From: an uncultured Chromatiales bacterium
Lineage (GTDB): Bacteria; Pseudomonadota; Gammaproteobacteria; Poriferisulfidales; Poriferisulfidaceae
NCBI GenBank assembly: GCA_964602805.1
Contig: CAZRSJ010000005.1
Location: 1 to 63,103 of the forward strand
Reading direction: 5' to 3'
Length of the DNA stretch: 63,103 nucleotides
Position 1 is the stretch's first letter; each line of letters opens with the position of its first letter. The position numbers were made by a program, and so were the translations under genes. Shown one piece after another: positions 33,780 through 56,089 of this stretch. The notes beneath the pieces are model-generated. The model made no database searches. It was not told where the DNA came from and saw nothing but the letters and a program-made list of their open reading frames with translations.

Positions 33780-35200
33780 TATTCAGTATCTTATCAAATC
33801 TTTAGTAGATCAGTTTCCAGCATGGCATAATCCCCGCATGATCCGTTCGTCTGTCTATCGCCTGTATCCGGGCACCCTGCGCCGGGGACAGATGTTGTCT
33901 GGCATTGCCGGGGCGAACCGCTATGTCTGGAACTGGGCTGCCGCCAACAATCGTGATGCAATGAAAGCCTATAAGGAGGGGAAAGGCGAAAAACCTTCCC
34001 CGACTTTCTTCACCCTGGGCCCGGAATTCACGAAACTGCGTAACAGCGCAGGCCACGAATGGCTGAAAGAACTGCCGTTCACAGAGGTCCGCTACGTGCT
34101 GAAGCGATACGCGGACGCCATGAAGGAAGCAAGGAAGGGTGCGCGGGGCTTTCCGAGATTCCGACATCGCGAGGACGGGGATTCGTTCACGATTCCGCAG
34201 GATGTGCGGATTACGGATGGGAAACTCTACATCACCAGGGTGGGCTGGGTGCCAATCAGCCGCCGGGGTGGCGACCCGTGGGCTTACGGCAAAGCGAAGC
34301 AGGCCGTGGTGGTCAAGCACCCCAACGGGAAATGGTACGTCTCGGTGTTCTGGGAAGTCCCGGATGCGAAACCGGAGGACAACGGCAAGGCGGTGGGCGT
34401 GGACCTGGGCAAATGGAACGTGGCAACCACCGAACCGGAACAGATATTCATGCCGGATGTCTCCCGCCTTGAGATCCGACTGAAGCGGCATCAACGGAAG
34501 ATGCATCGGCGCAAACGTATGCTCCTGCTGGATACAGACGGGGAACCGAAACGAATCCGGCAAGGCAAAGCCATCAAGGTCAATTCGGGCCGACGCGAGA
34601 AGGAGCGAAAGATCGTAGCAAGATTGTCTCGCAGGATCGCAAACATCCGGGACAACTGGCGACATCATGTCAGTTGTGACCTGGCGAGTCGCTTCGGGAC
34701 AATCTGCGTGGAAGGCCTGAAGATCAAAAACATGATGAGGTCGGCCAAAGGCACGGTGGAGAAACCGGGCAAGAATGTCAAGGCGAAATCTGCCTTGAAC
34801 CGGGGAATTGCGGAAAGCGGCTGGGGCCGGTTGCGCTTCATGCTCGAGTACAAGGCACACCGGGTGGAGCAAGTCAATCCGGCGTACACGAGCCAGACCT
34901 GCCACCAATGCGGGCATGTGGCGGAGGCGAACCGTCGGCAAGAGAGATTCAAATGCGTATCCTGCGGATACGCGGGGAATGCGGACATCAATGCCGCGTT
35001 CAACATACTGGCGCTGGGGACTGGCGCGGCTGGACAGGGAGGGGCGTTCGCCTCTGTCAGGGCCGGTCCTTCGGGCGCGGTTCGGTCAAGCGACCCCGAT
35101 GATCTGTCAATGGATATGCAAGGTCTGCTTGCGGATTATTGTCTATAAGTCCCTTTCAGATTATAGATTGAGGATAGGCTGACCCGTATAATTGTCTAAA
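33780..35200 (+). mobile_element. IS200/IS605-family, TnpB-only (IS1341-like) element; ends not defined
   Basis: Single tnpB ORF with no tnpA (Y1 or serine) gene, flanked by short AT-rich segments. A 7-bp-stem hairpin tctataa(35142-35148)/ttataga(35161-35167) spans the stop codon. The boundaries given are approximate. Confidence 0.5.
33838..35148 (+). CDS. tnpB: RNA-guided endonuclease TnpB (OrfB_IS605 + zinc ribbon)
   Basis: 436 aa. N-terminal YRLYPG, RuvC-I GVDLGKWNVA, RuvC-II ICVEGLKIKNM, zinc ribbon CHQCGH...CVSCGY, RuvC-III NADINAAFNIL. Confidence 0.9.
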   Translation: MIRSSVYRLYPGTLRRGQMLSGIAGANRYVWNWAAANNRDAMKAYKEGKGEKPSPTFFTLGPEFTKLRNSAGHEWLKELPFTEVRYVLKRYADAMKEARKGARGFPRFRHREDGDSFTIPQDVRITDGKLYITRVGWVPISRRGGDPWAYGKAKQAVVVKHPNGKWYVSVFWEVPDAKPEDNGKAVGVDLGKWNVATTEPEQIFMPDVSRLEIRLKRHQRKMHRRKRMLLLDTDGEPKRIRQGKAIKVNSGRREKERKIVARLSRRIANIRDNWRHHVSCDLASRFGTICVEGLKIKNMMRSAKGTVEKPGKNVKAKSALNRGIAESGWGRLRFMLEYKAHRVEQVNPAYTSQTCHQCGHVAEANRRQERFKCVSCGYAGNADINAAFNILALGTGAAGQGGAFASVRAGPSGAVRSSDPDDLSMDMQGLLADYCL

Positions 35201-35202
35201 CA

Positions 35203-35982
35203 ATGTGCACGCACACGCGGCTGCTTTTTCTGGGGCTGCTGGCATCGCTCGGCGGTGCTGGCCAGGCGGCGGATTCGCCGTTCTCCTTGGGCTCGGATCC
35301 CGGGCTGCAGATCGCCGTACGACTGATTTCCGACAAGACCCCGGAGGAACCGTCAGCGGACGGCAGTATCGAGGAAGAAGGCGCGGAATCTCCGGAACAG
35401 GCGGAAGAAGGTGCGCCTTCCGCACAAACTCCCGGCATCCCGGCCTCACAAGAGGACCGCGTCGAAGATCAAGGCCTTTTGGAGGATCCGGAAGAAGGCC
35501 AACCGGCCGCAGGCCAGGAAACAGCCGGTGAAACCGAAGATCCCGGGGTCGAAGACGAACTCGAAAGGGAGCCGGAACTTGCGGAGCAGGCAAGTATCGA
35601 AGAAGGGCAAGAGAGGGAGCTTTCCCGAATCGAGGCCGTATTGAACCGCGTTGACCAGATCCTGCTGGACGCGGGGGTCCGGGCCCGCAAAGAGCGGGAA
35701 GGAAGGATCGACGGCGACGGGACAACAGAGGAAGACTTGCCGGATTGGGAGACACAGGGCGAAGGCGAAGGGGAAACTGCAGAGGAAGAGGCCGAACGCG
35801 GCGGAGTCGCCGAAGGCCAGGTTCCCGGCGATGTCCCGACCGGCAAGACGCGTCCGACTCACGGCTACGAGAAAGACGACGACATCGTGACCCGGCAGGT
35901 CTGTGAACTGGCGGAACGAGAGGAAGACCCCGAGGTCCGTAAACAGCTGGAGCAAAAATGCAAAAGCCTGAGAGACAGTTAG
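35203..35982 (+). CDS. secreted hyper-acidic low-complexity protein
   Basis: 259 aa. Signal peptide LLFLGLLASLGGAGQA, then long Glu/Asp/Gly/Pro-rich sequence. The C-terminal segment has two Cys. Confidence 0.6.
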   Translation: MCTHTRLLFLGLLASLGGAGQAADSPFSLGSDPGLQIAVRLISDKTPEEPSADGSIEEEGAESPEQAEEGAPSAQTPGIPASQEDRVEDQGLLEDPEEGQPAAGQETAGETEDPGVEDELEREPELAEQASIEEGQERELSRIEAVLNRVDQILLDAGVRARKEREGRIDGDGTTEEDLPDWETQGEGEGETAEEEAERGGVAEGQVPGDVPTGKTRPTHGYEKDDDIVTRQVCELAEREEDPEVRKQLEQKCKSLRDS

Positions 35983-37142
35983 CCCTGCTCGCCTTGCTGC
36001 TGGCCTTCGCCAGCGGATGCCAGACCGGCATGTCCGGCGTCTACGGGGGCCTGTTCGAAAAATCGTCGGAAGAGCCGGCTGTCGAGCCGGTGCCGGAAGA
36101 ATGGTATCTGGATGCCGGCATTGTCCGGTTCAAGGGGGAAGTCGACAAGAAAGAAGTAGCCGAGGGGGACGTGTTCCCCCAGGTGCGAAGAGCCGAAACC
36201 CTGTATTTTCCCCAGCAGTTGCGCCAGGCGATGCTACGCGGGGGCGGCTGGCGGCATGTGTGGGTGGTGCCGGAACGCGCCGTTCCGGACCTGCGCATCG
36301 AGGGCACGATCCTGAAATCGAACGGCTCCGAACTGGACTTGAAAATCCTCGCCATCGACTCGACCGGCGGGCAGTGGCTCGATCGCGTCTACCACCATGA
36401 ATTCAGCGAAACCGATTACGCCGGCGAAGATCGGGCTCGGCCGATGGAAGCCCTATTCGACCAGATTGCCAAGGACCTTTTGCTCGAACGTGACCGCAAG
36501 GGGGTAGCAGCCATGAAGGAAATCCGCGCCGTGGCGGAATTGCGGTTCGCGGAAGAGTTCGCACCACAGGCGTTCGAACGTTATGTCAAGGAACAAAAGG
36601 GCCGCACGCGCCTGATTTCCCTGCCGGCCGAAGAAGACACGTTGTACCAACTGGTCCTGCAAATCAAGGAACGCGACGACCTCTTCGTCGAGACCCTGCA
36701 GCAATACTCGGAGGGTTTTTCGGAAAAGATCGATGCCTCGTACCGAGACTGGGCACGACAGAGTTTCTACGAACGCCGTGCGCATGACGAGGGAGTTGCC
36801 GCCAGCGTAACACAGGGACTTCTGAGCGCTCTGGCCATCATCGGCGGAGTCGTGGTGGCGGCCGACTCGGGGTCTTCCCCAGAAGTCCGCCAGCTCGGCC
36901 AAGTGCTGGTGGGGGCCGGCGCTTACGGTGCCTATGATGCCTACCAAGACTACGAAGCAACGGAAATCCACGAGGCCGCGCTCAAGGAGCTCGGACAGTC
37001 GCTCGACTTGGAGGTGGAGCCCCAAGTCGTGCAAGTAGAAAACCAGACACGGACGCTTACCGGGTCGGTCGAAGACCAGTACCAGCAGTGGCACGAAATC
37101 CTGAACGAGATTTACCTGTCGGAACGTGGCGCCCTGAACTGA
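35958..37142 (+). CDS. lipoprotein of unknown function
   Basis: 394 aa. Lipobox LLLAFASGC. Overlaps the preceding gene by 25 nt. One internal hydrophobic stretch (GLLSALAIIGGVVVAA). Confidence 0.65.
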   Translation: MQKPERQLALLALLLAFASGCQTGMSGVYGGLFEKSSEEPAVEPVPEEWYLDAGIVRFKGEVDKKEVAEGDVFPQVRRAETLYFPQQLRQAMLRGGGWRHVWVVPERAVPDLRIEGTILKSNGSELDLKILAIDSTGGQWLDRVYHHEFSETDYAGEDRARPMEALFDQIAKDLLLERDRKGVAAMKEIRAVAELRFAEEFAPQAFERYVKEQKGRTRLISLPAEEDTLYQLVLQIKERDDLFVETLQQYSEGFSEKIDASYRDWARQSFYERRAHDEGVAASVTQGLLSALAIIGGVVVAADSGSSPEVRQLGQVLVGAGAYGAYDAYQDYEATEIHEAALKELGQSLDLEVEPQVVQVENQTRTLTGSVEDQYQQWHEILNEIYLSERGALN

Positions 37143-37867
37143 TTCCGGTCGCACTGGCGCTGGTGGCGGGACTGGCCGCAGGAACCGCCACGGCCGAGAG
37201 CCTCCAGGATCGGGCGCTTCGTGCCATGCTGGATTCGGATTGGGCCCGGGCGGTCGAGTTGTGGGCAGGGGTGGACGGGCAACGAGCCCGGGAATACCTT
37301 CAGCAGGCCCGGGCGGAACTCCAGTATCAGCGGACCCGGTCCCTGCTGAACGAGGCCCGTGTAGCCCGGCAGAAAGAAGACTGGGCCACGGCCGATACCG
37401 CCTACCTCAAGGCATTGGCCATCTCCCCCCATTTGAAGTCGGCGCACCAAGGCCGAGAGCAAGTCGCCCTGTACATCGAGGCATACCGGCAGCTGGACGC
37501 GTTGAAACTGCCGGAAGGCCTCTACGACAAGGTCATCCGAGCCCGGGCGAAAGAGTGGCTTGCCTTTGTCCGAGAGAAACAACTCGATGACCGAAAGATC
37601 AGCAAGGCCCGCACGGAGATTGTCGAGGCATTGAAGCTGGCGCAAATCCCGGTTTCCCTGATCCTGACTTCGGACAACCAGTCCGAGGTTGAAATTTACG
37701 GCGTCGGGAAACTCGGGCGGCTCGAACGCCAGACCCTGAAGTTGATCCCAGGTGACTACATCGTCGTTGCCAACCGGCCCGGATACCGAGATGCTCGGGC
37801 GACGCTGAAAGTGCGCCCCGGCAAGGCTCTTACCCTAGACATTCGATGCACGGAGTCGATCCGGTGA
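37088..37867 (+). CDS. exported helical-repeat protein with C-terminal PEGA-like domain
   Basis: 259 aa from GTG 37088 (start uncertain). Signal-like LIPVALALVAGLAAGTATA. C-terminal LILTSDNQSEVEIYG...GDYIVVANRPGYRDARATLKV. Confidence 0.6.
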   Translation: MARNPERDLPVGTWRPELIPVALALVAGLAAGTATAESLQDRALRAMLDSDWARAVELWAGVDGQRAREYLQQARAELQYQRTRSLLNEARVARQKEDWATADTAYLKALAISPHLKSAHQGREQVALYIEAYRQLDALKLPEGLYDKVIRARAKEWLAFVREKQLDDRKISKARTEIVEALKLAQIPVSLILTSDNQSEVEIYGVGKLGRLERQTLKLIPGDYIVVANRPGYRDARATLKVRPGKALTLDIRCTESIR

Positions 37868-39681
37868 TTCTTGAGCACGAGCCGATCCAGGCCAAGCCAT
37901 ATCGGTCGCCCAAGCAGGAAAGGCGCCGCAAGCGGCCCTCAGCACCCCGATTTCGTGGGGTAGGGCTGGCGATTCTGCTCCTGGCACTGATGACGGCAGG
38001 CGCCTGGTACGCCATGGAGCAGGCACAACTCATCAGCTTCGAGACTGACCCCGCAACCGCCACGGTGCGTCTCGAGAGCCCGCACATGATGGTGAACGGG
38101 CAAGCCTTGCTCTGGCGTGGCCAGCATATCGCGAATGTGGAAGCAGAAGGCCACTACCCTCGGCAGATCGAATTCCAGGCGGGTGGAGACGCGCCGCGCA
38201 CCGTGCAGGTCACTCTGGACCCCTTGCCGGGCAAACTCCGGGTTTCCACGACCCCTGAAACCGAAGGGGAAGTCCGAGTCGACGGCGAACGCGCCGGGAA
38301 GATCGGAGAAATACTGGAGGATATCTCCCCGGGCCAACATGTCGTACAGGTCAGCGTGGAGGGCTTCGAAATGCGCCAGCAAACGGTAGAGATCGAGGGA
38401 TACGGCCAATTGACCGAGATTGAGATTTCTCTCCAGAAGGTCGTAGAACCCGCCTTGCTGACGATTTCCAGTACCCCCGATACCGCGGACATATTGATCG
38501 ATGGCATCTGGCGGGGGCGGACCCCGAAGCGGGTCGCATTGACTCCAGATACCCAGGTGGAAGTTGCCTTGTTATTGCCCGGCCATACTCCAAACCGGCA
38601 GACCCTGAAATTGAAATCCGGCCGCCAAAACCATACGGTGACCCTGACACCGCGCCTCGGTACCCTTGAACTTTGGCCAACGCCGGCCAACGCGACGATT
38701 CGTATTGACGGGCAGGTGGAACTCCGGCGTCAGTTGCAGCTGACACAGCAAGCCCATACCGTGGAAGTTTCCGCACCAGGCTATGTGACGAATAAATACA
38801 CCGTGGTGCCCCACCCGGATACCCCAAAGCAACTTTTCGCCGTCTTGCAATCACAGGCGAAGGTCGAACACTCCCGGCGCCAAAAGCATGAACGGGATTT
38901 CGGGCTGATCTTCGTCGAGTTCCAGCCCCGCGGTTCGTTCGAGCTCACGACCACACGCCGCCGAATCCCGGTGCGCCTGACCCGACCGTTCGCGATCATG
39001 GACAAGGAAGTCACCAACGCCCTGTACCAGCGCTACCGAGCCGAACATGACTCCGGAGAAGTGTTCGGCAAGCGCCTGGATCGCCCGAGCCAGCCGGTAG
39101 TGCAGGTCAGTTGGGCGGATGCCGCACTGTTTGCGAACTGGATGAGCAAGCAGGCAGGGGTTGCGCCGTTCTACCGGGTACGCGACGGGCAAATCGTGGG
39201 ATTCGATGCGCAGGCGACCGGATACCGGTTGCCGAGTGAAGCCGAATGGGTCTGGTTGACCCGTTCCGGAAAGCGGTATGCCTGGGGTGACTTCATGCCG
39301 CCTCCAGATCGGTTCGGTAATCTAGCAGACGCTTCCGCTTCCGACATCGTGCAGCCGACACTGGAAGGATACAACGACGGGCATGCCGTCAGCGCCGACG
39401 TCGGAAGCTTCCCGCCTTCGGGCCAAGGGTTGTATGATTTGCCGGGCAACGTGGCGGAATGGATGCACGATGTGTTTCTCGACAAACTGCGGGTTTCGAC
39501 CCGTCCGGAGACAGAGCGAGTCAATCCGCTGGGCGAGGCCAGCGGTCGATACTACGTTATCCGGGGATTTAGCTGGCGCGATGGCGGGCGCAAGGAGTTG
39601 AGCCTGAACAACCGTCGCTACGACCGCGATCCCAAGGACGATGTGGGGTTCCGGCTGACTTACTACCTGGACAAGCCATGA
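37846..39681 (+). CDS. single-pass membrane protein with four PEGA-like repeats and a C-terminal FGE-sulfatase (SUMF1-fold) domain
   Basis: 611 aa. TM helix GVGLAILLLALMTAGAWYAM. PEGA-like repeats (for example LTISSTPDTADILIDGIWRGRTP). FGE-sulfatase motifs (MDKEVTNALYQRY, QPVVQVSWADAALFANWMS, YRLPSEAEWVW, NVAEWMHD, GFSWRD, GFRL). Confidence 0.8.
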   Translation: MHGVDPVILEHEPIQAKPYRSPKQERRRKRPSAPRFRGVGLAILLLALMTAGAWYAMEQAQLISFETDPATATVRLESPHMMVNGQALLWRGQHIANVEAEGHYPRQIEFQAGGDAPRTVQVTLDPLPGKLRVSTTPETEGEVRVDGERAGKIGEILEDISPGQHVVQVSVEGFEMRQQTVEIEGYGQLTEIEISLQKVVEPALLTISSTPDTADILIDGIWRGRTPKRVALTPDTQVEVALLLPGHTPNRQTLKLKSGRQNHTVTLTPRLGTLELWPTPANATIRIDGQVELRRQLQLTQQAHTVEVSAPGYVTNKYTVVPHPDTPKQLFAVLQSQAKVEHSRRQKHERDFGLIFVEFQPRGSFELTTTRRRIPVRLTRPFAIMDKEVTNALYQRYRAEHDSGEVFGKRLDRPSQPVVQVSWADAALFANWMSKQAGVAPFYRVRDGQIVGFDAQATGYRLPSEAEWVWLTRSGKRYAWGDFMPPPDRFGNLADASASDIVQPTLEGYNDGHAVSADVGSFPPSGQGLYDLPGNVAEWMHDVFLDKLRVSTRPETERVNPLGEASGRYYVIRGFSWRDGGRKELSLNNRRYDRDPKDDVGFRLTYYLDKP

Positions 39682-39896
39682 AACGACTTTGGTGGGTATC
39701 CTTGTATGCGATGGCGGCCTTGGCATGGGCCGAAGAGCCTCCTGCACCGCAAGCGGAAGAAGAGGATCACCAGATTATCGAAATCCTAACTGAAGAGGAT
39801 CTCAAGCAGAAAACCCCACAGATCACACTCAAGCAATTGACCCCAAAAGAAACCATTTCCCTCGACCAAGCCGTGGATATGCCCAGTGACATATAA
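39678..39896 (+). CDS. small secreted acidic protein
   Basis: 72 aa. Signal peptide MKRLWWVSLYAMAALAWA. ATGA overlap with the upstream gene and 11-nt overlap with the downstream gene. Confidence 0.55.
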   Translation: MKRLWWVSLYAMAALAWAEEPPAPQAEEEDHQIIEILTEEDLKQKTPQITLKQLTPKETISLDQAVDMPSDI

Positions 39897-40767
39897 ATTG
39901 AACAACCTGACCGGGCGCTGGCGTGAACACGAAGTGTTCTGGCAATTGCTGGCGTTGGCGGTGTCGTTCGTGCTGGTGCACGCGGCGTATGAACTGGTGG
40001 TGCGCCCAGTCGCCTACGAGGAGTTACAACGCCAGGCCGTTGCCGAGGAACAGGCTGAAATCGCATCGCCGACGCTTGGCGCGCGGATCGCCGTGGTCGT
40101 CAAGGACTACGAGCAGGAAGCCTGTTTTATCGCCCTGTTCTGGGCGCTCGCCATCATGTGGATGAAGCTGATGAAGCTGCGCTTCGCACGAAGGCTGCTG
40201 AGCCAGCGTGGCCGGCAAGACGAGGAGAGTTTCCTGGAAACCCGGGAAACCGATCTGGTCCTGCCTCAGGCGCACGACCGGGCACGCTTCACCGACGTGC
40301 GCGAGTACGTGCGAATGCAGGGCTATGGCGGTACCGTGCTCTATCGGGCTGCCGACGCCTGTCTGGATCGTTTCTTCACGACGCATTCCGTATCGGACGC
40401 CACTGCGGCCATGAAGGCCAGTTGCGAGATGGAGTCGGACCGGCAGGATACCGAACTGGCACTGGTGCGCTACCTGACCTGGGCCATCCCGTCGCTTGGA
40501 TTCATCGGCACGGTGCGCGGGATCGGCGCAGCCCTGGGGCAGGCCGAAGAAGCCACGCGCGGCAACATCGGGCCGGTGACGGAAAGCCTTGGCGTGGCAT
40601 TCAATTCAACGTTTGTCGCCCTGCTGATCAGCCTGTTCATCATGCTGCTGCTGCACAAACTGCAGGAAGCCCAGGAGTCGCTGGTACTGGATGCCCAGGA
40701 GCATTGCCAGCATCACCTGCTGCGTTACCTGCGGGAGCGGACGCGGACGGATGAGCCTTCTTCTTAG
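39886..40767 (+). CDS. MotA/TolQ/ExbB proton-channel family protein
   Basis: 293 aa (GTG start), four TM helices. Family motifs WAIPSLGFIGTVRGIGAAL and GVAFNSTFVALLISLFIMLLL. Confidence 0.8.
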   Translation: MTYKLNNLTGRWREHEVFWQLLALAVSFVLVHAAYELVVRPVAYEELQRQAVAEEQAEIASPTLGARIAVVVKDYEQEACFIALFWALAIMWMKLMKLRFARRLLSQRGRQDEESFLETRETDLVLPQAHDRARFTDVREYVRMQGYGGTVLYRAADACLDRFFTTHSVSDATAAMKASCEMESDRQDTELALVRYLTWAIPSLGFIGTVRGIGAALGQAEEATRGNIGPVTESLGVAFNSTFVALLISLFIMLLLHKLQEAQESLVLDAQEHCQHHLLRYLRERTRTDEPSS

Positions 40768-41662
40768 GATCGACAGCTACGCGCTGGCACAGCCCGACGG
40801 CACCGACTGGCGGGTCGAGTGGTGCTTGGCCCACCGGGACTCAAAAGACGGTTGGCGATTTGGTAAAGATGCCGGTGAACGGCTGCAGCCCCGACACACC
40901 GACAACGAAAACAACGAATATCTGGAAACACCGGGGATAGGGGAAAGCCAAGGCACGTCGAATATCGACCTTGCGTATTTGCAGTTGCGGGAATTCCTAC
41001 CGGAAGGGGAAGGCCCGATCGACCTTTCGGTAAGCGGAGGAATCGACCGATCGCGGCTCGAACGTCTGCTGGGCGTTCTGGAAGCCTTGAGCTACGCACC
41101 CCGAAGTGTATTCCCGACCGCACTGCTGGCGGCCCGGGACCTTGAACCCGGGCGCTACGGCATCATCGAGCTCGGGCGCAACCGCAGCTGGATCAGCGCC
41201 ATTGACGTTCAGCCGGGCCGTGCGCGACTGGAATCAGTCCAGGATTACGGGGATTTCGGCTTCTACCACCTCTTCACCCAATGGATGGAGAACGCGGCGG
41301 AGGCCTTCGCAGCCCAACACCGTTTCGACATACATCGCAACCTCGCGACAAACCGCGGGCAGCTGTTCGAACAAATGTGCCAAGGCTTCGCCGGGAAATC
41401 CGGACAGATCCGGCTCAATCTGGATTCCCGGCCCGTGACGCTGGACGAAAAGGTCTTTCAGGCCCGCTGGCCGAAGTCTTCTCTCGATACGGAGGGGCTG
41501 GAGCTCCTGCTGCTGCCTCCCCTGACGCGGGTATTGCCGCTGCCGGAACAGGGGTTGGGTCTCCCTCTTTGTGCCAACCCCACGCCCCAGGCCGTCTTCA
41601 ATCTGGAGGCCGCCGTGCCGGAAGACGGGCAAGCCCACCGTTGCGTGGCCCTTTCCTGCTGA
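40751..41662 (+). CDS. cytoplasmic hypothetical protein
   Basis: Internal Met MSLLLRIDSY of ORF 40691..41662. 303 aa, no signal or TM segment, no motif recognised. 17-nt overlap upstream and no gap downstream. Confidence 0.55.
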   Translation: MSLLLRIDSYALAQPDGTDWRVEWCLAHRDSKDGWRFGKDAGERLQPRHTDNENNEYLETPGIGESQGTSNIDLAYLQLREFLPEGEGPIDLSVSGGIDRSRLERLLGVLEALSYAPRSVFPTALLAARDLEPGRYGIIELGRNRSWISAIDVQPGRARLESVQDYGDFGFYHLFTQWMENAAEAFAAQHRFDIHRNLATNRGQLFEQMCQGFAGKSGQIRLNLDSRPVTLDEKVFQARWPKSSLDTEGLELLLLPPLTRVLPLPEQGLGLPLCANPTPQAVFNLEAAVPEDGQAHRCVALSC

Positions 41663-42706
41663 ATGTCCCGACGCCGCCGCAGCCGTTTCCTGAACCCGTT
41701 CGGCCTGGCTTTCCTGGATGTCATGTCCTGCGGACTGGGGGCCGCGGTCCTGCTGTTCCTGATCATCGACCACAATCTAACCGAACTGGCGCAAGCATCG
41801 GAGAGCGGCGAGGGAGATATGCAACTGCTGGAGCAATCGATCCAGGAACAGGAAGAACTGATTACCGAGCACCGCAGACAGATGCGTCAACTGCAACGCG
41901 AGTTGGAAAGCCTGGCGCAGCAGCGCGTGGCCGCCATCACCACCCAGGCCGAACTTCGCGCCCGCCAACCGAAAGCGTCTGACACGGCCCAACTGGAACA
42001 GGAACTGCGCAAGCGGAAGAAAAAGCTTCAGGAAGCGGAGAAAAGCAAGCAACTGAGAGCGAAAGAGGGAGAAGGGCAACGCCAGTACGTGGCGGGCTTC
42101 CGGGTCGAGGGCCGCCGCATCCTGATCCTGCTGGACCGCTCGGCCAGCATGCAGGACGAACGTATCGCCACGATCATCCGAAACAAGTTTCTCCCGGTGA
42201 AGTACCAGGTCGAGAGCTACAAGTGGCGCTGGGCGCGTTCCATCTTCGAATGGGTTCTCTCACACCTGCCGCAAGAGGCGCAATACCAAGTCTGGGGTTT
42301 CAGCACGACAGCGGCGCCGGCGCTGCCGAGGAGCGGATGGCTTCCGGCAAAAGACGGGAAGCGAATGGAAGAGGTGATTTCGGCCGTGCAGGGCTGGGTC
42401 CCTGCGGGAGGAACCCGACTTGATACGACCCTCAAGAAGATCGCCCAGATCAAGCCAAGGCCGGATGCTGTCTATCTGATTACGGACGGCCTGCCGACGC
42501 AGGGAAAATCCTGGTTCAAGAAAAACCGGGTCAGCCCTTCCCAGCGCATGGATTTTTTCCAAGAAGCAACGGGAGGCATTGCAGGCCCGCCTTTCAACAT
42601 CGTTCTGCTTCCACTTGAGGGCGACCCGGCAGCGGCCGGGGCCTACTGGGGATTTGCGATGAGGACGAACGGGCAATTCCTGGCCCCGGCGGAGGACTGG
42701 CCATGA
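41663..42706 (+). CDS. ExbD/TolR-like TM helix + coiled coil + VWA domain protein
   Basis: 347 aa. Arg-rich N-terminus, helix FGLAFLDVMSCGLGAAVLLFLII, roughly 110-aa coiled coil, VWA with MIDAS DRSAS and later GGTRLD / ITDG. Confidence 0.75.
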   Translation: MSRRRRSRFLNPFGLAFLDVMSCGLGAAVLLFLIIDHNLTELAQASESGEGDMQLLEQSIQEQEELITEHRRQMRQLQRELESLAQQRVAAITTQAELRARQPKASDTAQLEQELRKRKKKLQEAEKSKQLRAKEGEGQRQYVAGFRVEGRRILILLDRSASMQDERIATIIRNKFLPVKYQVESYKWRWARSIFEWVLSHLPQEAQYQVWGFSTTAAPALPRSGWLPAKDGKRMEEVISAVQGWVPAGGTRLDTTLKKIAQIKPRPDAVYLITDGLPTQGKSWFKKNRVSPSQRMDFFQEATGGIAGPPFNIVLLPLEGDPAAAGAYWGFAMRTNGQFLAPAEDWP

Positions 42707-43668
42707 GGCGCGTCCGCCGGCAAGCCGATAATCGTTTGTCGTTCCTCGACGTGGTCAGCTGTGGGTTCGGGGCCATGGTGCTGCTGATCCTGATCACTAA
42801 AAACACTGTGGGTGAGCCGGTCGAAGATCTTCGGGCCCAAATCGAAGCGCTGCAGGAACAACTCTCACGCATCATTCAGATCCGGGCAAGCCTGGCAACC
42901 GAACAACTTGCGGTGCAAACCCGAGTGCACGCCCAGCAGGAAAAACTGCAGGACGAACGGAAGGGCGTAGAGGAAGCGCGGCAGGCGAATGCTGGCGCCC
43001 AGGCGCAGGCCCTGATCGAAGCAGACCTGAAGACCGCGCTACAACGCCTCAATGAAGAAATGCGACGGCTGAATCTGACTGCATCCGAGCCGGATGTGAT
43101 TGGTGGCATCCCAGCCGACAGCGAGTACATCATTTTTATTGTCGACACGTCCGGCAGCATGAAACGGTTTGCCTGGAAGGCCGCCAGGCAACAGTTGGTG
43201 GCTCTGCTGGACGCTTATCCGAAAGTGCGCGGGCTCCAAGTGATGAACGACATGGGCACGTATATGTTCAGCGGCTACCGGGGGCGCTGGATTCCGGATA
43301 CGCCCGCACGGCGGAAGGTTCTCCTGCAGCGCTTTGACTCCTGGCATTCGTACAGCAATTCGAGCCCCGTCGAAGGCATTCTGGAAGCCATAAAGCGATT
43401 CCGCATGAAATCCGACAAGATCAGCCTGTACATCTTCGGCGACGAATACACTGGCGAGTCGATCCAGCGGGTCATCGACACGGTGGAGGATCTCAACTAC
43501 CGGGATGGGAAGAGACAGGTCCGCATTCATGCGGTCGGGTTCTTCACCCGGGCTCAGATCGAGAAGATCGATCCGAAATACGCCGATACCACTAGTCGGT
43601 TCGCGGCGCTAATGCGGGAGCTGACCCGGCGCAACGGAGGAACTTTTTTGGGGATCACGGTGGATTGA
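42703..43668 (+). CDS. ExbD/TolR-like TM helix + coiled coil + VWA domain protein (paralogue)
   Basis: 321 aa. MRRVRRQADNRLSFLDVVSCGFGAMVLLILI, coiled coil, VWA with MIDAS DTSGS. ATGA overlap with the previous gene. Confidence 0.75.
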   Translation: MRRVRRQADNRLSFLDVVSCGFGAMVLLILITKNTVGEPVEDLRAQIEALQEQLSRIIQIRASLATEQLAVQTRVHAQQEKLQDERKGVEEARQANAGAQAQALIEADLKTALQRLNEEMRRLNLTASEPDVIGGIPADSEYIIFIVDTSGSMKRFAWKAARQQLVALLDAYPKVRGLQVMNDMGTYMFSGYRGRWIPDTPARRKVLLQRFDSWHSYSNSSPVEGILEAIKRFRMKSDKISLYIFGDEYTGESIQRVIDTVEDLNYRDGKRQVRIHAVGFFTRAQIEKIDPKYADTTSRFAALMRELTRRNGGTFLGITVD

Positions 43669-43701: not shown

Positions 43702-44508
43702 CTACTGTCCTAACCGTCGGGTAATCGCCAACCGGAAAACATCCAATTCATGCTCAATCTTGTAGGGACAAGGCCTCCGGGGTCCATCCGGTCCGCAGCG
43801 ATTGTTTCCAGAATGATTCACGTGGTAATCGTTCCGCCCAAAATCCATACGAAGTCCCTCTAATCGCGCCACCCAGCCCCCGTTCAACGGGATTTCGGCC
43901 CCGAACCCGATGACCCAACCGGTTTCCGTCGAGCGATCATGAAAGGAGTCGTCAGGATCCACCGTCCTAGGTCGGTTCGGTCCAAAATCAACGTCGACGA
44001 CGAAGTTTTCAATCCGGGCACGCGCCAATCCTCCCGTAGCAAACACCGTCACTGAACCGAATGATTTCTCGATTCCTACACGGGCCGTAGTAATCCACTG
44101 AAACTCCACCACGGCCGTCTCGTCCAAAGCCCAAGGGCGGGGATCGAGCTGGTTAGTCTGGGCCTCTAAGTCACCGATGGTGCCTTCCAGTTCCAGTCGA
44201 ATCATGGTGCCACCCAGATTGAATTTCTTCCCTATCAGCACGCCACCAATGAAGCCGGCATCCTCGTAGCGAGTCACTAAGCCAGGACTGACCGGGTACG
44301 CAAAACCATTTGTATCAGTCAGCCGATTGTCGACTTCGGCAGATCCCACGAAAACACCCGCATAGGCTTCCGACCCATGGGGGGCCGACCAATTTTCCGC
44401 AGCAAAAACGGGGCCGCTTGCCACAACCATGAGAAGGACAAACATCCCAAGTGCCGTGCCACCCGGGGCATTATTGCCCCTGGACTCAAGCAAGAAAAAC
44501 GGTTTCAT
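43702..44508 (-). CDS. outer-membrane beta-barrel protein (OmpA-like/OMP_b-brl type)
   Basis: 268 aa with a signal peptide ending VFAAEN. Alternating-hydrophobicity strands (GFIGGVLIGKKF, WVIGFGAEIPL, WVARLEGLRMDFG) and a barrel-like C-terminal region. Confidence 0.65.
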   Translation of the reverse strand: MKPFFLLESRGNNAPGGTALGMFVLLMVVASGPVFAAENWSAPHGSEAYAGVFVGSAEVDNRLTDTNGFAYPVSPGLVTRYEDAGFIGGVLIGKKFNLGGTMIRLELEGTIGDLEAQTNQLDPRPWALDETAVVEFQWITTARVGIEKSFGSVTVFATGGLARARIENFVVDVDFGPNRPRTVDPDDSFHDRSTETGWVIGFGAEIPLNGGWVARLEGLRMDFGRNDYHVNHSGNNRCGPDGPRRPCPYKIEHELDVFRLAITRRLGQ

Positions 44509-44547: not shown

Positions 44548-45279
44548 TCAGTCAATCCGCGTTCCGCGGTGGATAGCTACAATTCCGGCGCTTAGGTTGA
44601 AGTACTGGCAGGAAGCAAACCCTGCAGCGCGCATCATCTCGCGCAAGGTCCGTTGGTCCGGATGTACGGCGATGGATTCCGCCAGGTAGCGGTAGCTGTC
44701 GCGATCCCCGGCCACCAGTTCGCCTAGTTTCGGCACGGCCTGGTGCGTGTACGCATGGTAGAGCGGCTCCAGCCAAGCGGCCGGTTGGGAGAATTCGAGC
44801 ACGACCGCCAGTCCGCCGGGACGCAGCACCCGGTACATTTCTTGCAGGCAGGCCGAGGGATTCGTGAAATTGCGCAGGCCGAACCCGACCAGAACCCGGT
44901 CGAACGACTCCGACTCGAAAGGAAGCGCCATCGCATTGCCCTGTACGGCTGGAATATCCGTCAAACCTTCGTCCAGCAGCCGGTCCCGACCCTGAGTCAG
45001 CATGCCGTTGCTGAAGTCGCATAGGATCACCTGTCCTTCCGGGCCGACCTTCGAGCGAACCAGCCGGGCCAAGTCGCCGGTGCCACCAGCGAGATCCAGC
45101 ACACGTTGGCCCTCCCGGAGTTGCGCGAGCAGCGCAAACGTGCGTTTCCAGACCCGGTGCAGCCCGAACGACATCAGGTCGTTCATCAGGTCGTAGCGGA
45201 ACGCCACCGACTCGAACACCTCGTTTACAAGGCGGGTTTTCTCGTCCGGCTCAACCTCCCGGTAGCCAAAGCGCGCCAT
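44548..45279 (-). CDS. ubiE: ubiquinone/menaquinone C-methyltransferase UbiE
   Basis: 243 aa. VFESVAFRYDLMNDLMSFGLHRVWKR, SAM motif VLDLAGGTGDL, GFGLRN. Confidence 0.95.
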   Translation of the reverse strand: MARFGYREVEPDEKTRLVNEVFESVAFRYDLMNDLMSFGLHRVWKRTFALLAQLREGQRVLDLAGGTGDLARLVRSKVGPEGQVILCDFSNGMLTQGRDRLLDEGLTDIPAVQGNAMALPFESESFDRVLVGFGLRNFTNPSACLQEMYRVLRPGGLAVVLEFSQPAAWLEPLYHAYTHQAVPKLGELVAGDRDSYRYLAESIAVHPDQRTLREMMRAAGFASCQYFNLSAGIVAIHRGTRID

Positions 45280-47255: not shown

Positions 47256-48082
47256 AATTCCACGGAACCAGTATAGGCATACTCCGCACTGCCCCGCAAC
47301 ACCACCGGCTGGCCTTCGCCTTCCCAGTTCACCTGAAGGTCTCCGCCGGGAAGCGACACTACGACATCCTCCTGAAGCTCTCCCGCCAGCCGGCCTGCGA
47401 CTACTGCTGCGCAAGCCCCGGTACCGCAACCCGGAGTCTCGCCGACCCCGCGCTCCCATACCCGCAGCCGGATATGCCGAGGCGTGGAGATTTCCATGAA
47501 GCCCACATTGGCATGCCGGGGGAATCTCGGATGGGTCTCGATCCGGGGCCCCAGGATGTTCACCGGCGCACTGCCGATCGCATCGACGGTCAGCACCGCA
47601 TGGGGATTGCCCATGGAAACCACGGCAATCGAATATTCTTTTCCGCCCACCTCCAAGACGTAAGCGGGGTGGCGGCCTCGATTCGAAAAGGGAATTTCGT
47701 CCGGTTCCAGCCTCGGGGTGCCCATATTGACGCTCACCGAGCCGTCGTCGTGCAGTTGCAGGATGACTTCCCCCGAAGGCGCGCGCGCGCGCTGGTTCGA
47801 GGCATCTGCATACTTTCGATCGGCAGCATAGCGGCCCAAGCAGCGTGCGCCATTGCCGCATTGCTCCACTGACTGGCCGTCGGCATTGTAGATCCGGTAG
47901 GAAAAATGGATGTCAGGGTCCGGATCCGAGTCCAGGAACAACACCTGATCACACCCGACCCCGACGCGGCGGTCCGCGATTCTCCGCAATTGGGCTACCG
48001 TCAGGGAAACCTCACGGTCCCAAGCATCAAGGACGACGAAGTCGTTGCCCAGGCTGTGCATTTTGGTGAAGTCGAGCCGCAT
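47252..48082 (-). CDS. dapF: diaminopimelate epimerase
   Basis: 276 aa. MRLDFTKMHSLGNDFVVLD, active-site Cys motifs NADGQSVEQCGNGARC and GVGETPGCGTGACA. Confidence 0.95.
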   Translation of the reverse strand: MRLDFTKMHSLGNDFVVLDAWDREVSLTVAQLRRIADRRVGVGCDQVLFLDSDPDPDIHFSYRIYNADGQSVEQCGNGARCLGRYAADRKYADASNQRARAPSGEVILQLHDDGSVSVNMGTPRLEPDEIPFSNRGRHPAYVLEVGGKEYSIAVVSMGNPHAVLTVDAIGSAPVNILGPRIETHPRFPRHANVGFMEISTPRHIRLRVWERGVGETPGCGTGACAAVVAGRLAGELQEDVVVSLPGGDLQVNWEGEGQPVVLRGSAEYAYTGSVEL

Positions 48083-48165
48083 CGCTGCATTTTACTTTAG
48101 GGTTAGCACATGGACACGTGCACGGCACAAACATGGCCTAGATCGCGTCCGACCAATCGTATTTC

Positions 48166-48193
48166 TTGACAAATTAGCAATTCGGTTTACAAT
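48166..48193 (+). promoter_or_regulatory. sigma70-type promoter candidate for the XRE-ImmA gene
   Basis: TTGACA (48166-48171), 16-nt spacer, TACAAT (48188-48193). It lies 37 nt upstream of ATG 48231. Confidence 0.5.
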
Positions 48194-48230
48194 ATTAAAA
48201 TTCCTTTGAATTCTATAAACCGAGTTTAAT

Positions 48231-49298
48231 ATGATCGGCGCACGCTTGAAGCGGGCACGGGCGGCTTCTGGTCTGTCGATGAAAGCGTTGGGCGAGCAGG
48301 CCGGGGTCAGTGCCAACATGATTAAGAAATATGAGCATGATGTAAGTATGCCCAGTTCTGGAGTGCTGCTCAAACTAGGGCAGGCACTGGATGTTCGCTC
48401 TGAATATTTCTTTCGCCCGGTGAATGTAGAACTCACTCGGGTTGAATACCGAAAACGTGCCAATACCCCAGTATCCGTGCTCAAACGGATAGAGGCAGAC
48501 GTGCTGGAGCAAGCCGAGCGCTGGCAGGAACTAGCCAATCTTTGGCCACAATTTCCAGTTTCCAAGTTTGACCAAGTTCAAAACCTACCGGACTGCTTGA
48601 ATGACTTGAAACAGATTGAAAAAGTGGCGGAACGGGTGCGGACGGTATGGAAACTTGGCATGAATCCGATTCCGGACCTAGTCGACCTGCTTGAGTCGCA
48701 TGGAGTGTTGGTAATCGTCACACAAGTGGAAGATCAGACGAAATTCAGCGGCCTTCAGGCGGTGGTGGCCAAACAACCGGTGATTGTGATTTCAGCCAAC
48801 TGGCCAGGAGATCATCAGCGCTTCACATTGGCTCATGAGCTTGGTCACCTGCTCCTGCACAAACGCCTCGACCCGGTACTGGATGAAGAAAAAGCTTGCA
48901 ACCGATTTGCCGGAGCTTTTCTGCTGCCTGCGACCAGTACTCGGCAGCAACTTGGAAAGAAGCGCCATAGCCTAGAAATGTACGAACTATTTCTTCTGAA
49001 GCATGAATTTGGGTTGAGTATGCAGGCGTGTCTATATCGGGCAGCCGACTTGGGGATTATTGACGAATCCGTGTGCAAGCGCCTATTCATGCGTTTCTCT
49101 TCGCAGGGGTGGCGCAAAAAGGAACCCGGCAAAGCTTGCCCAGGCGAACGAACAGTTCTGTTCCAGCAACTAGTTCATCGCGCCTTAGGCGAAGGCATCA
49201 TCAATGAATCAAAAGCGGCCGAATTGCTGAAGACTTCTCTTATGGCCTTCCGCAAAATGCGAAATTTGGAGTCTTTCAGTGCAGGTTTTCAGTTGTGA
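48231..49298 (+). CDS. XRE-family HTH fused to ImmA/IrrE-type (M78, COG2856) zinc metallopeptidase
   Basis: 355 aa. N-terminal HTH (IGARLKRARAASGLSMKALGEQAGVSANMIKKYEHD) and HExxH FTLAHELGHLLLH in the C-terminal half. Confidence 0.85.
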   Translation: MIGARLKRARAASGLSMKALGEQAGVSANMIKKYEHDVSMPSSGVLLKLGQALDVRSEYFFRPVNVELTRVEYRKRANTPVSVLKRIEADVLEQAERWQELANLWPQFPVSKFDQVQNLPDCLNDLKQIEKVAERVRTVWKLGMNPIPDLVDLLESHGVLVIVTQVEDQTKFSGLQAVVAKQPVIVISANWPGDHQRFTLAHELGHLLLHKRLDPVLDEEKACNRFAGAFLLPATSTRQQLGKKRHSLEMYELFLLKHEFGLSMQACLYRAADLGIIDESVCKRLFMRFSSQGWRKKEPGKACPGERTVLFQQLVHRALGEGIINESKAAELLKTSLMAFRKMRNLESFSAGFQL

Positions 49299-49761: not shown

Positions 49762-49782
49762 CGGATCCGGAATTGAAGATTC

Positions 49783-50583: not shown

Positions 50584-50594
50584 GGCGATCTACA

Positions 50595-52949: not shown

Positions 52950-53200
52950 TCGTTAGGAAAACATCTAAAGATGGCAAACGCACATTGTCCTTGACTACAG
53001 GATAACTCTGTACCATTCATAGCGGCTTTTCTTCGCGAAACTACCGGTTCGAAAAACTTGTGTGGGCTTTTTGTGTGGTCGCAATTCTTGGAAATGGGCA
53101 ACGACATAATGACAAAAATATTTACAAATGTCTAGGTGTGGTTGCCGCAAATTGGTACTCTAAAAGTTTAGAGTCCTAAAAATTTAGATCTGCTTTCGGT

Positions 53201-53229
53201 TTGCAAGGGTCACTGGATTTGGCTAGAAT
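53201..53229 (+). promoter_or_regulatory. sigma70-type promoter candidate for rplU-rpmA
   Basis: TTGCAA (53201-53206), 17-nt spacer, TAGAAT (53224-53229). It lies 30 nt upstream of the rplU ATG. Confidence 0.5.
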
Positions 53230-53258
53230 ACGCGCCCCCTGACGGTTCAATCCTTCTC

Positions 53259-53570: not shown

Positions 53571-53577
53571 GGCAGCG

Positions 53578-53838: not shown

Positions 53839-53884
53839 TCCATCCGGCTGGCCTTCCGGCATGTCCCAGTGCCGGAATTCCTGA

Positions 53885-56089
<2,205 letters not shown>

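Follow-up and report, generated by a model that had tools for sequence, protein, structure and literature searches.

The window, that is, the whole 63,103-nt stretch of DNA analyzed, comes from Candidatus Porisulfidus, a symbiont of a sponge. Positions 39886-43668 contain four genes (the stator gene g6, g7, VWA1, and VWA2), and all sequence strings quoted for this region in the original prediction were found where it had placed them. These four genes and those upstream of them are as follows:

g1, 35203..35982, plus strand: Glu/Asp-rich secreted protein, 259 aa; lineage-specific accessory
g2, 35958..37142, plus strand: conserved lipoprotein-like envelope protein with a lipobox (LAFASG-C21) and a hydrophobic segment at 284-302
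g3, 37088..37867, plus strand: TPR protein with an N-terminal hydrophobic anchor and a C-terminal PEGA/CarboxypepD_reg-like beta-sandwich
g4, 37846..39681, plus strand: bitopic inner-membrane protein with PEGA domains and an FGE-sulfatase fold
g5, 39678..39896, plus strand: small acidic secreted protein, 72 aa; lineage-specific accessory
g6, 39886..40767, plus strand: MotA/TolQ/ExbB-family stator subunit, 293 aa
g7, 40751..41662, plus strand: cytoplasmic protein with no TM segment, 303 aa; putative Hsp70/actin-like (ASKHA) fold
g8 (VWA1), 41663..42706, plus strand: candidate axle subunit A, 347 aa
g9 (VWA2), 42703..43668, plus strand: candidate axle subunit B, paralogue of VWA1, 321 aa

Seven of these genes form a conserved operon (lipoprotein, TPR protein, TM-PEGA-FGE-fold protein, stator, Hsp70-like protein, VWA1, and VWA2). 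Of the 80 loci sampled, which span 35-96% identity, more than 70, belonging to different families of Gammaproteobacteria, kept a strict gene order. The order g6-g7-VWA1-VWA2 was kept in essentially all loci with sufficient flank, with ORFs that overlap or abut; the start of VWA2 overlaps the stop of VWA1 by 4 nt. VWA2 accompanied VWA1 in 72 of the 73 distant loci (the contig of the remaining locus stops short of the VWA2 position), and the g7 slot was occupied by a gene in 71 of the 73. Genes g1 (69 D+E in 259 aa) and g5 are outside the conserved core: homologues of g1 were restricted to loci L001-L006, homologues of g5 were restricted to L001-L005 and L007, and neither protein was present in the 73 loci outside the Porisulfidus lineage (L001-L007). 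Acidic secreted proteins, which had been proposed as the obvious ligands of the VWA domains, therefore cannot be the conserved ligand.

The g6 product, which carries AIPSLGFIGTVRG and NSTFVALLISLF, matched the Pfam family PF01618 (MotA_ExbB; E = 4.3e-12, 46.3 bits, cutoff 22.9) and the TolQ model of NCBIfam (E = 2.7e-5), and TolQ was the sole match when the PDB was searched with the g6 family profile (8odt_A, E = 0.005). On these sequence matches, g6 is a bona fide member of the MotA_ExbB family. Four TM segments were predicted (approximately residues 17-35, 80-98, 200-220, and 237-255). The HMM alignment places P202 and T209 (both within AIPSLGFIGTVRG) and T242 (within NSTFVAL) at TolQ P138, T145, and T178, respectively, and all three residues were invariant in 79/79 g6 sequences; thus, the Pro/Thr channel motifs are retained in the MotA-like partner, as predicted. 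The channel chemistry of g6 is not identical to that of TolQ because a Val occupies the position of TolQ E173 (ExbB E176).

VWA1 (start, MSRRRRSRFLNPFGLAFLDVMSCGLGAAVLLFLII) and VWA2 (start, MRRVRRQADNRLSFLDVVSCGFGAMVLLILI) are collinear paralogues (BLASTP, E = 8e-11). Both consist of an Arg-rich tail, a single TM helix with an Asp, approximately 100 helical residues, and a VWA domain, and the tail and the Asp-bearing helix are at the positions originally described. In VWA1, the Arg-rich cytoplasmic tail precedes a TM helix at nt 41699-41767 with D19 at nt 41717-41719; the VWA2 helix is at nt 42733-42798 and D16 is at nt 42748-42750. The positive-inside rule puts the VWA domains in the periplasm, as predicted. 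In the 80 loci, the TM Asp was invariant (D19 in 81/81 VWA1-type and D16 in 79/79 VWA2-type sequences), as was the flanking motif F-L-D-x-(M/V)-x-C-G-x-G-A in the same sequences, and both were found in 119/120 database homologues, the one exception being an N-terminally truncated gene call. Conservation of the Asp, on which the original prediction depended, was thus borne out. The TM helix is the best-conserved part of the VWA proteins, which are 35-40% identical outside it; judged from sequence, such conservation would not be expected of a passive anchor.

The Asp is 16-19 residues from the N-terminus in both VWA proteins, and its position and local motif match those of TolR D23 (LLDVL) and ExbD D25 (FIDVM); these E. 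coli strings, and MotB D32, are correct in the original prediction. When the helices were aligned to ExbD/TolR with hhalign, the Asp motif came into register as proposed (FLDVM with (L/F)(L/I)DV(L/M)), but the alignment had P of approximately 0.03-0.045 and a probability of approximately 1%, and the VWA proteins gave no Pfam match to PF02472 (ExbD/TolR). Sequence homology of this helix to ExbD/TolR is therefore not demonstrable. ExbD/TolR/MotB homologues (phmmer, E < 0.01) were absent from the 63-kb window and, in the 80 loci, from the 10 kb on either side of the gene (21 kb scanned per genome), in agreement with the proposal that the two VWA proteins stand in place of ExbD/TolR.

The predicted stalk of approximately 100 residues agrees with the helices of the VWA1 AF2 model (13-45, 51-100, and 108-136; pLDDT > 90 for the VWA domain), in which the helical stalk extends to approximately residue 136. 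Heptad (3.5-residue) hydrophobic periodicity was significant in the membrane-proximal half (VWA1 51-100, above 2000/2000 shuffles; VWA2 36-85, reached by 0.55% of shuffles) but not in the distal half (shuffle test). The spacing between the TM Asp and the MIDAS Asp was tightly fixed (medians of 154 in VWA1 and 142 in VWA2) and was shorter in both paralogues of Porisulfidus (139 and 132, respectively), joint shortening being expected if the VWA1 and VWA2 stalks pair. The two distances co-varied across 77 loci (r = 0.93), a correlation that is mostly a contrast of two clades and, thus, cannot be counted as 77 independent observations.

Both VWA heads have an intact metal-binding (MIDAS) motif, as originally noted. 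In VWA1, this is D158-x-S160-x-S162 (DRSAS, residues 158-162; nt 42134-42148) plus T274-D275; D158, S160, S162, and the second MIDAS Asp (D275) were invariant in 81/81 sequences, and T274 was kept in 72/81. The VWA2 motif, D148-x-S150-x-S152 (DTSGS, residues 148-152; nt 43144-43158), was kept in 78/79 sequences. VWA1 matched Pfam VWA_2 with 28.9 bits (cutoff 27), whereas VWA2 was under the gathering threshold (21.2 bits). The best Foldseek matches of the VWA1 head were VWA domains (4fx5, CLCA1, BatB, and ITIH1; E of approximately 1e-6).

The original prediction left g7 undiscussed; its conserved start is at 40751. The AF2 model of g7 was poor (pLDDT 53.7, pTM 0.53), and all 50 Foldseek matches listed were Hsp70-family NBDs (Hsp70, Hsp110, and Ssz1; E down to 3e-6, TM 0.28-0.39), so that the modeled fold is probably an Hsp70/actin-like (ASKHA) nucleotide-binding domain. 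Orthologues elsewhere are 420-470 aa long with an additional C-terminal FHA-like domain that g7 of the window does not have; the latter aligns only to positions 34-251 of the long-orthologue profile (E = 4e-24). That profile matched FHA domains (KIF13B, 0.003; CHFR; EssC; Ki-67) and SSZ1 (0.1), and an FHA domain on g7 is probable in most lineages.

The three upstream envelope proteins were also syntenic. Gene g2 had the same position and order in at least 51 distant loci (phmmer, E = 1e-43 to 1e-75), with a nearly invariant lipobox C21 in the family alignment and no match among Pfam, NCBIfam, or PDB profiles. Gene g3 (58 loci) is shortened here (259 aa vs. approximately 510 aa elsewhere); it gave weak Pfam matches to PEGA and TPR, and its family profile matched TPR structures with E down to 1.5e-11. 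Gene g4 (67 loci) encodes a basic N-tail, a TM segment at approximately 36-54, periplasmic PEGA domains (Pfam, E = 1.9e-18), and a C-terminal FGE-sulfatase-fold domain (E = 5e-32), the active-site region of which (VIRGFSWRDGGRK) has no Cys; the FGE Cys pair is absent in the alignment to the PDB matches.

Taken as a whole, the locus is probably a member of "TPH-vWA," a class of putative 5:2 motors powered by the proton motive force. The architecture proposed originally, an orphan MotA/TolQ-like stator with two Asp-bearing single-pass proteins, was upheld: the Asp and the channel Thr/Pro are invariant and synteny is strict. We infer its 5:2 stoichiometry, pore insertion of the helices, heterodimerization, rotation, force transmission, and ligand as follows. 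A g6 pentamer, TolQ/MotA-like, would form the proton channel, and its central pore would be filled by two N-terminal TM helices, one from VWA1 and one from VWA2, with no part played by an ExbD/TolR/MotB dimer. D19 and D16, one per helix, would face the g6 Thr ring (T209 and T242), and their protonation and deprotonation would rotate the axle relative to the pentamer. The helices would run on into a parallel heterodimeric stalk of 100-115 residues (approximately 15 nm if fully extended), so that the two VWA heads, both MIDAS-competent, would sit far into the periplasm. There they might engage a conserved partner through one of its acidic residues, passing torque or tension on to this partner. 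Together with g2, g3, g4, and g7, the motor would make up a conserved envelope machine of seven genes, in which g7 may regulate or clutch the stator.

According to the original prediction, a motor whose axle proteins are tipped with VWA domains had yet to be described, and this is wrong: a computational study, [quoted passage not shown] (Mol Biol Evol 2025, PMC12204202, Fig. 4c,d), had put forward such a class on genomic grounds and reported heterologous pairs of "TPH-vWA" genes with a conserved Asp beside an orphan tolQ-like gene. In its AlphaFold 3 model, built for one member of the family, the pentamer encloses the helices, and their Asp residues lie against the Thr ring. A literature search for experiments on class members returned only this paper, the text of which is silent on the other genes of the conserved operon ("PEGA" and "sulfatase," 0 occurrences). 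New here are the embedding of the putative motor module in a conserved seven-gene operon, the co-varying lengths of the two stalks across loci, and the lineage restriction of the proposed acidic ligands.

The VWA proteins might instead be ordinary membrane-anchored periplasmic scaffolds (BatA/BatB-like) that co-occur with g6, with ExbD/TolR encoded elsewhere or g6 acting as a channel alone, and with the TM Asp serving oligomerization or membrane insertion. The lack of statistically significant homology between the helix and ExbD/TolR, the presence of Bacteroides BatB (the VWA domain of a membrane protein) among the structural neighbors of the VWA head, and the span of the scan (21 kb per genome), beyond which distant ExbD/TolR genes could lie, would all suit this reading. 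It is nevertheless unlikely: the Asp and nine adjacent TM positions were invariant in 160 sequences, whereas the remaining protein diverged to 35% identity; both paralogues were always present; the helix type was confined to coiled-coil plus VWA proteins (245 clusters, 0 with another ectodomain); and it is otherwise highly atypical for a tolQ-like gene to stand as an orphan, with neither tolR nor exbD beside it (PMC12204202).

A signaling or gating device, in which proton flux via g6 and the TM Asp reports the PMF or envelope state and, by way of the stalk, switches MIDAS ligand affinity in the manner of integrins (outside-in or inside-out), the Hsp70-like/FHA protein providing the cytoplasmic read-out, is similarly improbable. 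The conserved cytoplasmic partner, which in most lineages probably carries a phosphothreonine-binding FHA domain, is consistent with such a device, and neither axle protein has a peptidoglycan-binding or OmpA-like anchor (Pfam, NCBIfam). VWA/MIDAS domains are, moreover, classic allosteric switches, as in integrin I domains. Against this, every characterized MotA/ExbB/TolQ-family complex is, to our knowledge, an energy transducer; the FHA domain is dispensable, because Porisulfidus g7 does not have it; and no gene of the operon resembled a kinase, phosphatase, or transcription factor (Pfam, NCBIfam). Coincidence, that is, hydrophobic helices with a chance Asp beside unrelated genes, has a probability close to nil and is refuted for practical purposes by the invariance of the motif in 160 sequences and the strict gene order in more than 70 loci of different families, although chance matches of short TM motifs are fairly frequent and the hhalign score was equaled by 6/200 column shuffles (3%).

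The putative VWA-tipped motor can be compared with several known systems. With MotAB, PomAB, and ZorAB, it shares the Pfam superfamily, a four-TM stator topology, and a single-pass partner bearing an Asp, whereas an OmpA-like peptidoglycan-binding domain is missing from its axle; the axle proteins showed no plug helix, and in a PADLOC search for Zorya, similarity to ZorA was negligible (E = 0.029) and ZorB, ZorC, and ZorD had no matches. The resemblance to GldLM (PorLM) of the T9SS is analogy only: in both systems, a dimeric axle protein (for this locus, as proposed) itself extends a long periplasmic arm and energizes an outer-membrane-proximal complex, and both operons include a noncatalytic FGE-sulfatase-fold protein. 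PorK/GldK was among the best PDB matches of the single g4 sequence (E = 5e-14; FGE enzymes, 1e-13), but the family profile fitted true FGE enzymes slightly better (1.6e-28 vs. 1.3e-25 for PorK), the GldK model of NCBIfam gave 71 bits (cutoff 350), g4 is TM-anchored with PEGA domains whereas PorK/GldK is a lipoprotein, and nothing at the locus was related in sequence to GldL, GldM, or GldN (Pfam, NCBIfam).

The Myxococcus AglR-AglQ-AglS motor likewise combines a TolQ-like subunit with two different TolR-like axle subunits and involves TPR proteins, and a VWA adhesin, CglB, is located at the far end of the gliding machine (PMC9946355). However, AglQ and AglS are small TolR-like proteins of the ordinary kind, CglB is not fused to the axle but is a lipoprotein of its own in the outer membrane, and no Glt homologues were detected at the locus (Pfam, NCBIfam). 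Closer are Tol (TolQ-TolR-TolA) and Ton (ExbB-ExbD-TonB): g6 is in the same Pfam family, with TolQ as its closest solved relative and the channel Pro and Thr conserved, and the axle helix is N-in with a basic tail, an Asp at equivalent depth, and the motif hydrophobic-hydrophobic-D-V-(M/L). In contrast to Tol and Ton, g6 has an extra N-terminal TM segment, giving a four-TM, MotA-like topology, and a Val at the TolQ E173 equivalent; the VWA proteins have neither the ExbD/TolR periplasmic domain nor a PF02472 match; the proposed axle is a heterodimer of paralogues; and the locus has no TonB/TolA-type third subunit, so that the axle itself would bear the effector domain. With the TPH-vWA class, exemplified by Idiomarina loihiensis (PMC12204202), the locus has no difference in principle when compared by description, and it shares all features named for that class: TM-tethered vWA proteins beside a tolQ-like gene with no tolR/exbD/motB nearby, a trans-pore helix that resembles that of TolR/ExbD and carries a conserved Asp, absence of the SHLS/His TonB-type motif, a conserved ring of Thr residues in the subunit of the pentamer, heterologous gene pairs, and a proteobacterial host.

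The + strand of the window holds a densely packed operon at 35.2-43.7 kb, in which the ORFs abut or overlap. Its genes, in order, were g1 to g7, followed by VWA1 and VWA2 (also g8 and g9), which encode the putative axle proteins:

35203-35982 (+), g1, secreted protein rich in Glu/Asp
35958-37142 (+), g2, lipoprotein-like protein without a known domain
37088-37867 (+), g3, TPR protein with a PEGA-like end
37846-39681 (+), g4, protein with a basic tail, one TM segment, PEGA domains (Pfam E=1.9e-18) and an FGE-sulfatase-fold domain (Pfam E=5e-32)
39678-39896 (+), g5, small acidic secreted protein
39886-40767 (+), g6, stator of the MotA/TolQ/ExbB family (PF01618, E=4.3e-12)
40751 (conserved start) to 41662 (+), g7, protein without a Pfam match or TM segment
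41663-42706 (+), VWA1
42703-43668 (+), VWA2

The operon is flanked by ubiB (31632-33176, ABC1 kinase domain) and ubiE (44548-45279). A TnpB/Cas12f1-like gene with OrfB_IS605 and Cas12f1-like TNB domains (33838-35148, +) lies directly upstream, and an outer-membrane beta-barrel (OMP) gene (43702-44508, -; OMP_b-brl, E=3e-8) runs convergently towards the operon. Because ubiB and ubiE are near neighbours in many Gammaproteobacteria, the 11-kb block that lies between them here (TnpB, operon and OMP gene) may have been inserted or rearranged. The OMP gene was kept in close relatives only, 4.5-6 kb further off in two of them (L003 and L005), and is probably outside the system. Promoter and terminator matches in a scan were no more common than expected by chance. 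Farther along the window, positions 48000-54000 form a low-GC island (0.44-0.50, vs. ~0.60 elsewhere), which resembles a mobile islet for restriction/modification or defence:

48231-49298, regulator with HTH and IrrE/M78-peptidase domains
49279-49761, 160-aa ORF overlapping the HTH/IrrE regulator gene
49783-50583, D12-class N6-adenine DNA methyltransferase
50595-52949, DndB-domain protein (784 aa)

At the protein level, VWA1 was 96% identical to that of Candidatus Porisulfidus sp. TsSOB, which oxidises sulfur in association with sponges and has a genome of ~1.5-1.9 Mb. A scan of GTDB representatives, with one genome per species, gave at least 569 related loci, and database homologues of VWA1 amounted to at least 865 protein clusters; hosts ranged from free-living marine heterotrophs to genome-reduced sponge symbionts. 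Eighty of the loci were fetched, seven from the Porisulfidus lineage (L001-L007) and 73 distant ones. When the window proteins were compared by phmmer with all ORFs of these loci, the order g2-g3-g4-g6-g7-VWA1-VWA2 was observed in essentially all loci whose flanks reached far enough, and a separate all-against-all clustering gave the same order. Of the 73 distant loci, 71 had the stator gene beside the VWA genes and 72 had VWA1 paired with VWA2; the contig of the 73rd stops 158 bases past VWA1. Genes g1 and g5 were found in L001-L007 only. The original prediction had offered these acidic secreted proteins as VWA ligands, and as conserved ligands they are ruled out, since both are lineage-specific.

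Outside the Porisulfidus lineage the same-strand block was longer, with extra genes that are absent from the window: upstream, a TPR protein (~470 aa) and a protein without assigned identity (~360 aa); downstream, two proteins without assigned identity (~225-235 aa) and a BepA-like M48 protease (~480-495 aa). Examples are L034:416-2780 with 12054-14839, and L009:17-2566 with 11691-14983. By cluster counts, these genes were kept in 38-64 of the 73 distant loci, which could reflect either a functional link or mere inherited synteny. Within the Porisulfidus lineage, g3 (259 aa vs. ~510 aa elsewhere), g4 (611 vs. ~700 aa) and g7 (303 vs. 420-470 aa) were shortened, and the symbiont therefore holds a minimised version of the machine. 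Four operon-bearing metagenome-assembled genomes (L009, L026, L045 and L050) are titled 'Klebsiella pneumoniae' or 'Klebsiella sp.'; these labels look like mis-assigned taxonomy, because the loci group with Pseudomonadales/Pseudohongiella-type loci.

The stator g6 matched PF01618 over residues 166-269 (46.3 bits, gathering cutoff 22.9), and the only solved structure matched by its family profile was TolQ (8odt_A, E=0.005). Residues P202, T209 and T242 aligned in the HMM alignment to TolQ P138, T145 and T178 and were invariant (79/79 sequences); the channel-lining Thr pair is T145/T178 in TolQ and T148/T181 in ExbB. The position equal to TolQ E173 is Val. An additional N-terminal TM segment gives g6 a MotA-like four-TM topology, and its acidic loop on the periplasmic side carries D-x-E-Q-E as an invariant motif. 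Invariant residues without a TolQ counterpart were His32, which lies in the additional first TM helix, and D74-x-E76-Q77-E78-x-C80, where TM2 reaches the periplasm; they may make up a site of proton entry or touch the axle immediately above the membrane. From family membership and an AF3 model of a relative (PMC12204202), we infer that g6 would form a pentamer around a dimeric partner (5:2).

Each axle protein has a single TM helix, predicted to be N-in, with an Asp near its cytoplasmic third (VWA1 D19, VWA2 D16) that is comparable to TolR D23 and ExbD D25. The interval of the original prediction (39886-43668) takes in g6 to VWA2. All strings quoted in that prediction occur in the window, its E. 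coli TolR and ExbD sequences were correct, and the TM Asp that it had singled out was conserved in 81/81 VWA1-type and 79/79 VWA2-type sequences of the 80 loci. In a 34-sequence alignment of VWA1 (35-89% identity), the N-terminal positions L15, F17, D19, M21, C23, G24, G26, L30 and F32 were invariant, and mean column identity outside them was 52%. Residue H37 of VWA1, just above the membrane, was nearly invariant; the TM helices of both proteins are without His and without the SHLS/His motif. As paralogues the two proteins align collinearly (22% identity, E=8e-11), and they are encoded by adjacent genes, the stop codon of VWA1 overlapping the start codon of VWA2. Because Arg-rich N-tails and acidic post-TM segments point to an N-in, C-out orientation, the VWA domains are predicted to lie in the periplasm, as had been proposed.

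The AF2 monomer of VWA1 (pLDDT 78.7) consisted of helices at 13-45, 51-100 and 108-136, followed by a VWA domain (pLDDT >90) whose structural neighbours were all VWA domains. VWA1 matched PF13519 above the cutoff; VWA2 fell below the Pfam threshold for VWA, yet is paralogous to VWA1. The metal-binding (MIDAS) residues D158, S160, S162 and D275 of VWA1 were invariant (81/81), T274 was present in 72/81 sequences, and the DxSxS of VWA2 was present in 78/79. In the half of the stalk nearer the membrane, family-averaged hydrophobicity was strongly periodic (3.5 residues) in both proteins; in the distal half this period was not significant. The spacing between the TM Asp and the MIDAS Asp varied little (median of 154 residues for VWA1, 142 for VWA2) and was shorter in both proteins of the Porisulfidus lineage (139 and 132, respectively). 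This joint change in stalk length fits a paired stalk, but the correlation between the two spacings (r=0.93, 77 loci) is largely a two-clade contrast. A search for other ectodomains on this helix type found none, and the odd-length matches were fragments or chimeric gene calls.

Neither axle protein matched PF02472 in Pfam at E≤1, their periplasmic part being a coiled coil plus a VWA domain, and the full VWA1 family had no ExbD/TolR match in Pfam, NCBIfam or PDB profile searches. In the PDB profile search this family matched ATP synthase b subunits and coiled coils, an effect of composition. Comparison of the TM helix by hhalign with E. coli TolR/ExbD, and also with 113 TolR/ExbD homologues, placed FLDVM in register with (L/F)(L/I)DV(L/M), though without significance (P=0.03-0.045); the helix score of 13.9 (P=0.045, probability 1.2%) was reached by 6 of 200 column shuffles. 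A third large protein search yielded Enterobacterales sequences only, so that little diversity was gained. TolR, ExbD and MotB genes were absent at E<0.01 from the window and from within 10 kb of the VWA genes in the 80 loci (phmmer, E. coli queries), and Pfam and NCBIfam gave no ExbD or MotB match in the operon. VWA1 and VWA2 stand outside PF02472. Their helix looks like, and would work like, an ExbD/TolR trans-pore helix.

Among the remaining conserved genes, g2 had no match in Pfam, NCBIfam or PDB-profile searches. The AF2 model of g7 was poor (pLDDT 54), and all 50 of the 50 Foldseek matches listed were Hsp70-family nucleotide-binding domains; these matches of a low-confidence model make an Hsp70/actin-like fold probable. 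Pfam matches were absent for the window protein and for 20 long orthologues, and alignment with DnaK by hhalign, in register over 'VPxxF...EPxAAA', was insignificant (P=0.043). Orthologues of 420-470 aa begin V(I/L)ELND-G ... SPGYAL ... G--A----RL-P and contain AVPGSFS-EQL-LLLG ... VGLVDSAVAAA; by eye, these motifs are reminiscent of Hsp70/actin-fold motifs. The C-terminus of the g7 orthologue profile matched FHA domains (KIF13B, CHFR, EssC, YukB and Ki-67), and such a domain is probable in g7 of most lineages. The window protein aligned to profile positions 34-251 only, and thus the FHA part is absent from it. Longer orthologues with the extra C-terminal FHA-like domain include L009:8608-10005 and L034:8691-10001.

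The locus observation of the original prediction was confirmed, and its architectural interpretation, a stator with two Asp-bearing, VWA-tipped single-pass proteins, is well supported. We think it probable that a g6 pentamer passes protons by the residues D19 and D16 of a heterodimer of VWA1 and VWA2, which would be seated in the pore. Rotation or torsion would reach the two MIDAS heads through a ~15-nm helical stalk, and the heads would hold on to an acidic residue in a conserved partner of the periplasm or outer membrane, for which g2, g3 and g4 are candidates; g7 would work on the cytoplasmic face of the stator.

A broader reading seems to us unlikely: the seven-gene operon would be a previously unrecognised gammaproteobacterial trans-envelope machine, laid out like the T9SS/gliding core. 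Its parts would be the products of the seven genes: lipoprotein, TPR protein, TM-PEGA-FGE-fold protein, stator, cytoplasmic Hsp70-like/FHA protein and the two VWA axle subunits. The motor's own long dimeric axle would drive a periplasmic/outer-membrane assembly around the non-catalytic FGE-fold protein, with coupling via reversible MIDAS-metal bonds, and an actin/Hsp70-fold, phosphothreonine-reading clutch would control the stator from the cytoplasm. If so, retention in reduced sponge-symbiont genomes of 1.5-1.9 Mb would indicate an important envelope/host-interface function, for example secretion, surface-protein movement or outer-membrane maintenance. The FGE-fold domain of g4 is without the FGE catalytic Cys pair, and PorK/GldK were among the best PDB matches of g4. 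The search for T9SS core equivalogs gave only a domain-level GldK match of g4 (71 bits vs. a cutoff of 350) and no GldL, GldM or GldN. A specific relationship of g4 to PorK/GldK was rejected at the family level; because true FGE enzymes score slightly above PorK with the g4 family profile, the T9SS parallel is an analogy, not membership. A Zorya (ZorAB) defence system was also rejected, since ZorA was matched at E=0.029 only and PADLOC gave no other matches.

The proposed motor, with a VWA1-VWA2 axle in a g6 pentamer, is not without precedent. The original prediction held that no VWA-tipped motor had been described, a claim refuted by a computational study (PMC12204202; Mol Biol Evol, June 2025). 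In that work (Fig. 4c,d), TM-tethered vWA homologues co-occur tightly with tolQ homologues, without tolR/exbD, carry a TolR/ExbD-like trans-pore helix with a conserved Asp, and are encoded as heterologous pairs in Proteobacteria and Verrucomicrobia; an AF3 model from another species has the Asp residues ringed by Thr, and the function is stated as unknown. The text of PMC12204202 has no mention of PEGA, sulfatase/FGE or a gene between the stator and axle genes, and a full-text literature search found no other papers on this motor class. The window locus belongs to this recently predicted TPH-vWA class, known from computation only: it likewise has a TM-tethered vWA protein with an Asp trans-pore helix and without the SHLS/His motif, pairs a tolQ-like gene with vWA genes in the absence of tolR/exbD/motB, and has a heterologous vWA gene pair.

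The basic motor idea being already published, the window contributes a member and its context, not a discovery. The additions are the conserved operon context, whose full gene set supplies concrete ligand and regulator candidates, and the rejection of the acidic proteins as ligands across the family. The family is large, has no known phenotype and is experimentally tractable, since there are cultured hosts such as Kineobactrum sediminis and Pseudohongiella acticola. To our knowledge, the energy of all well-understood 5:2 motors is taken up by a separate part (the flagellar rotor, TonB or TolA), except in GldM/PorM, a dedicated axle that itself spans the periplasm. An axle tipped with metal-dependent adhesion domains would be a new coupling of proton flow to periplasmic work.
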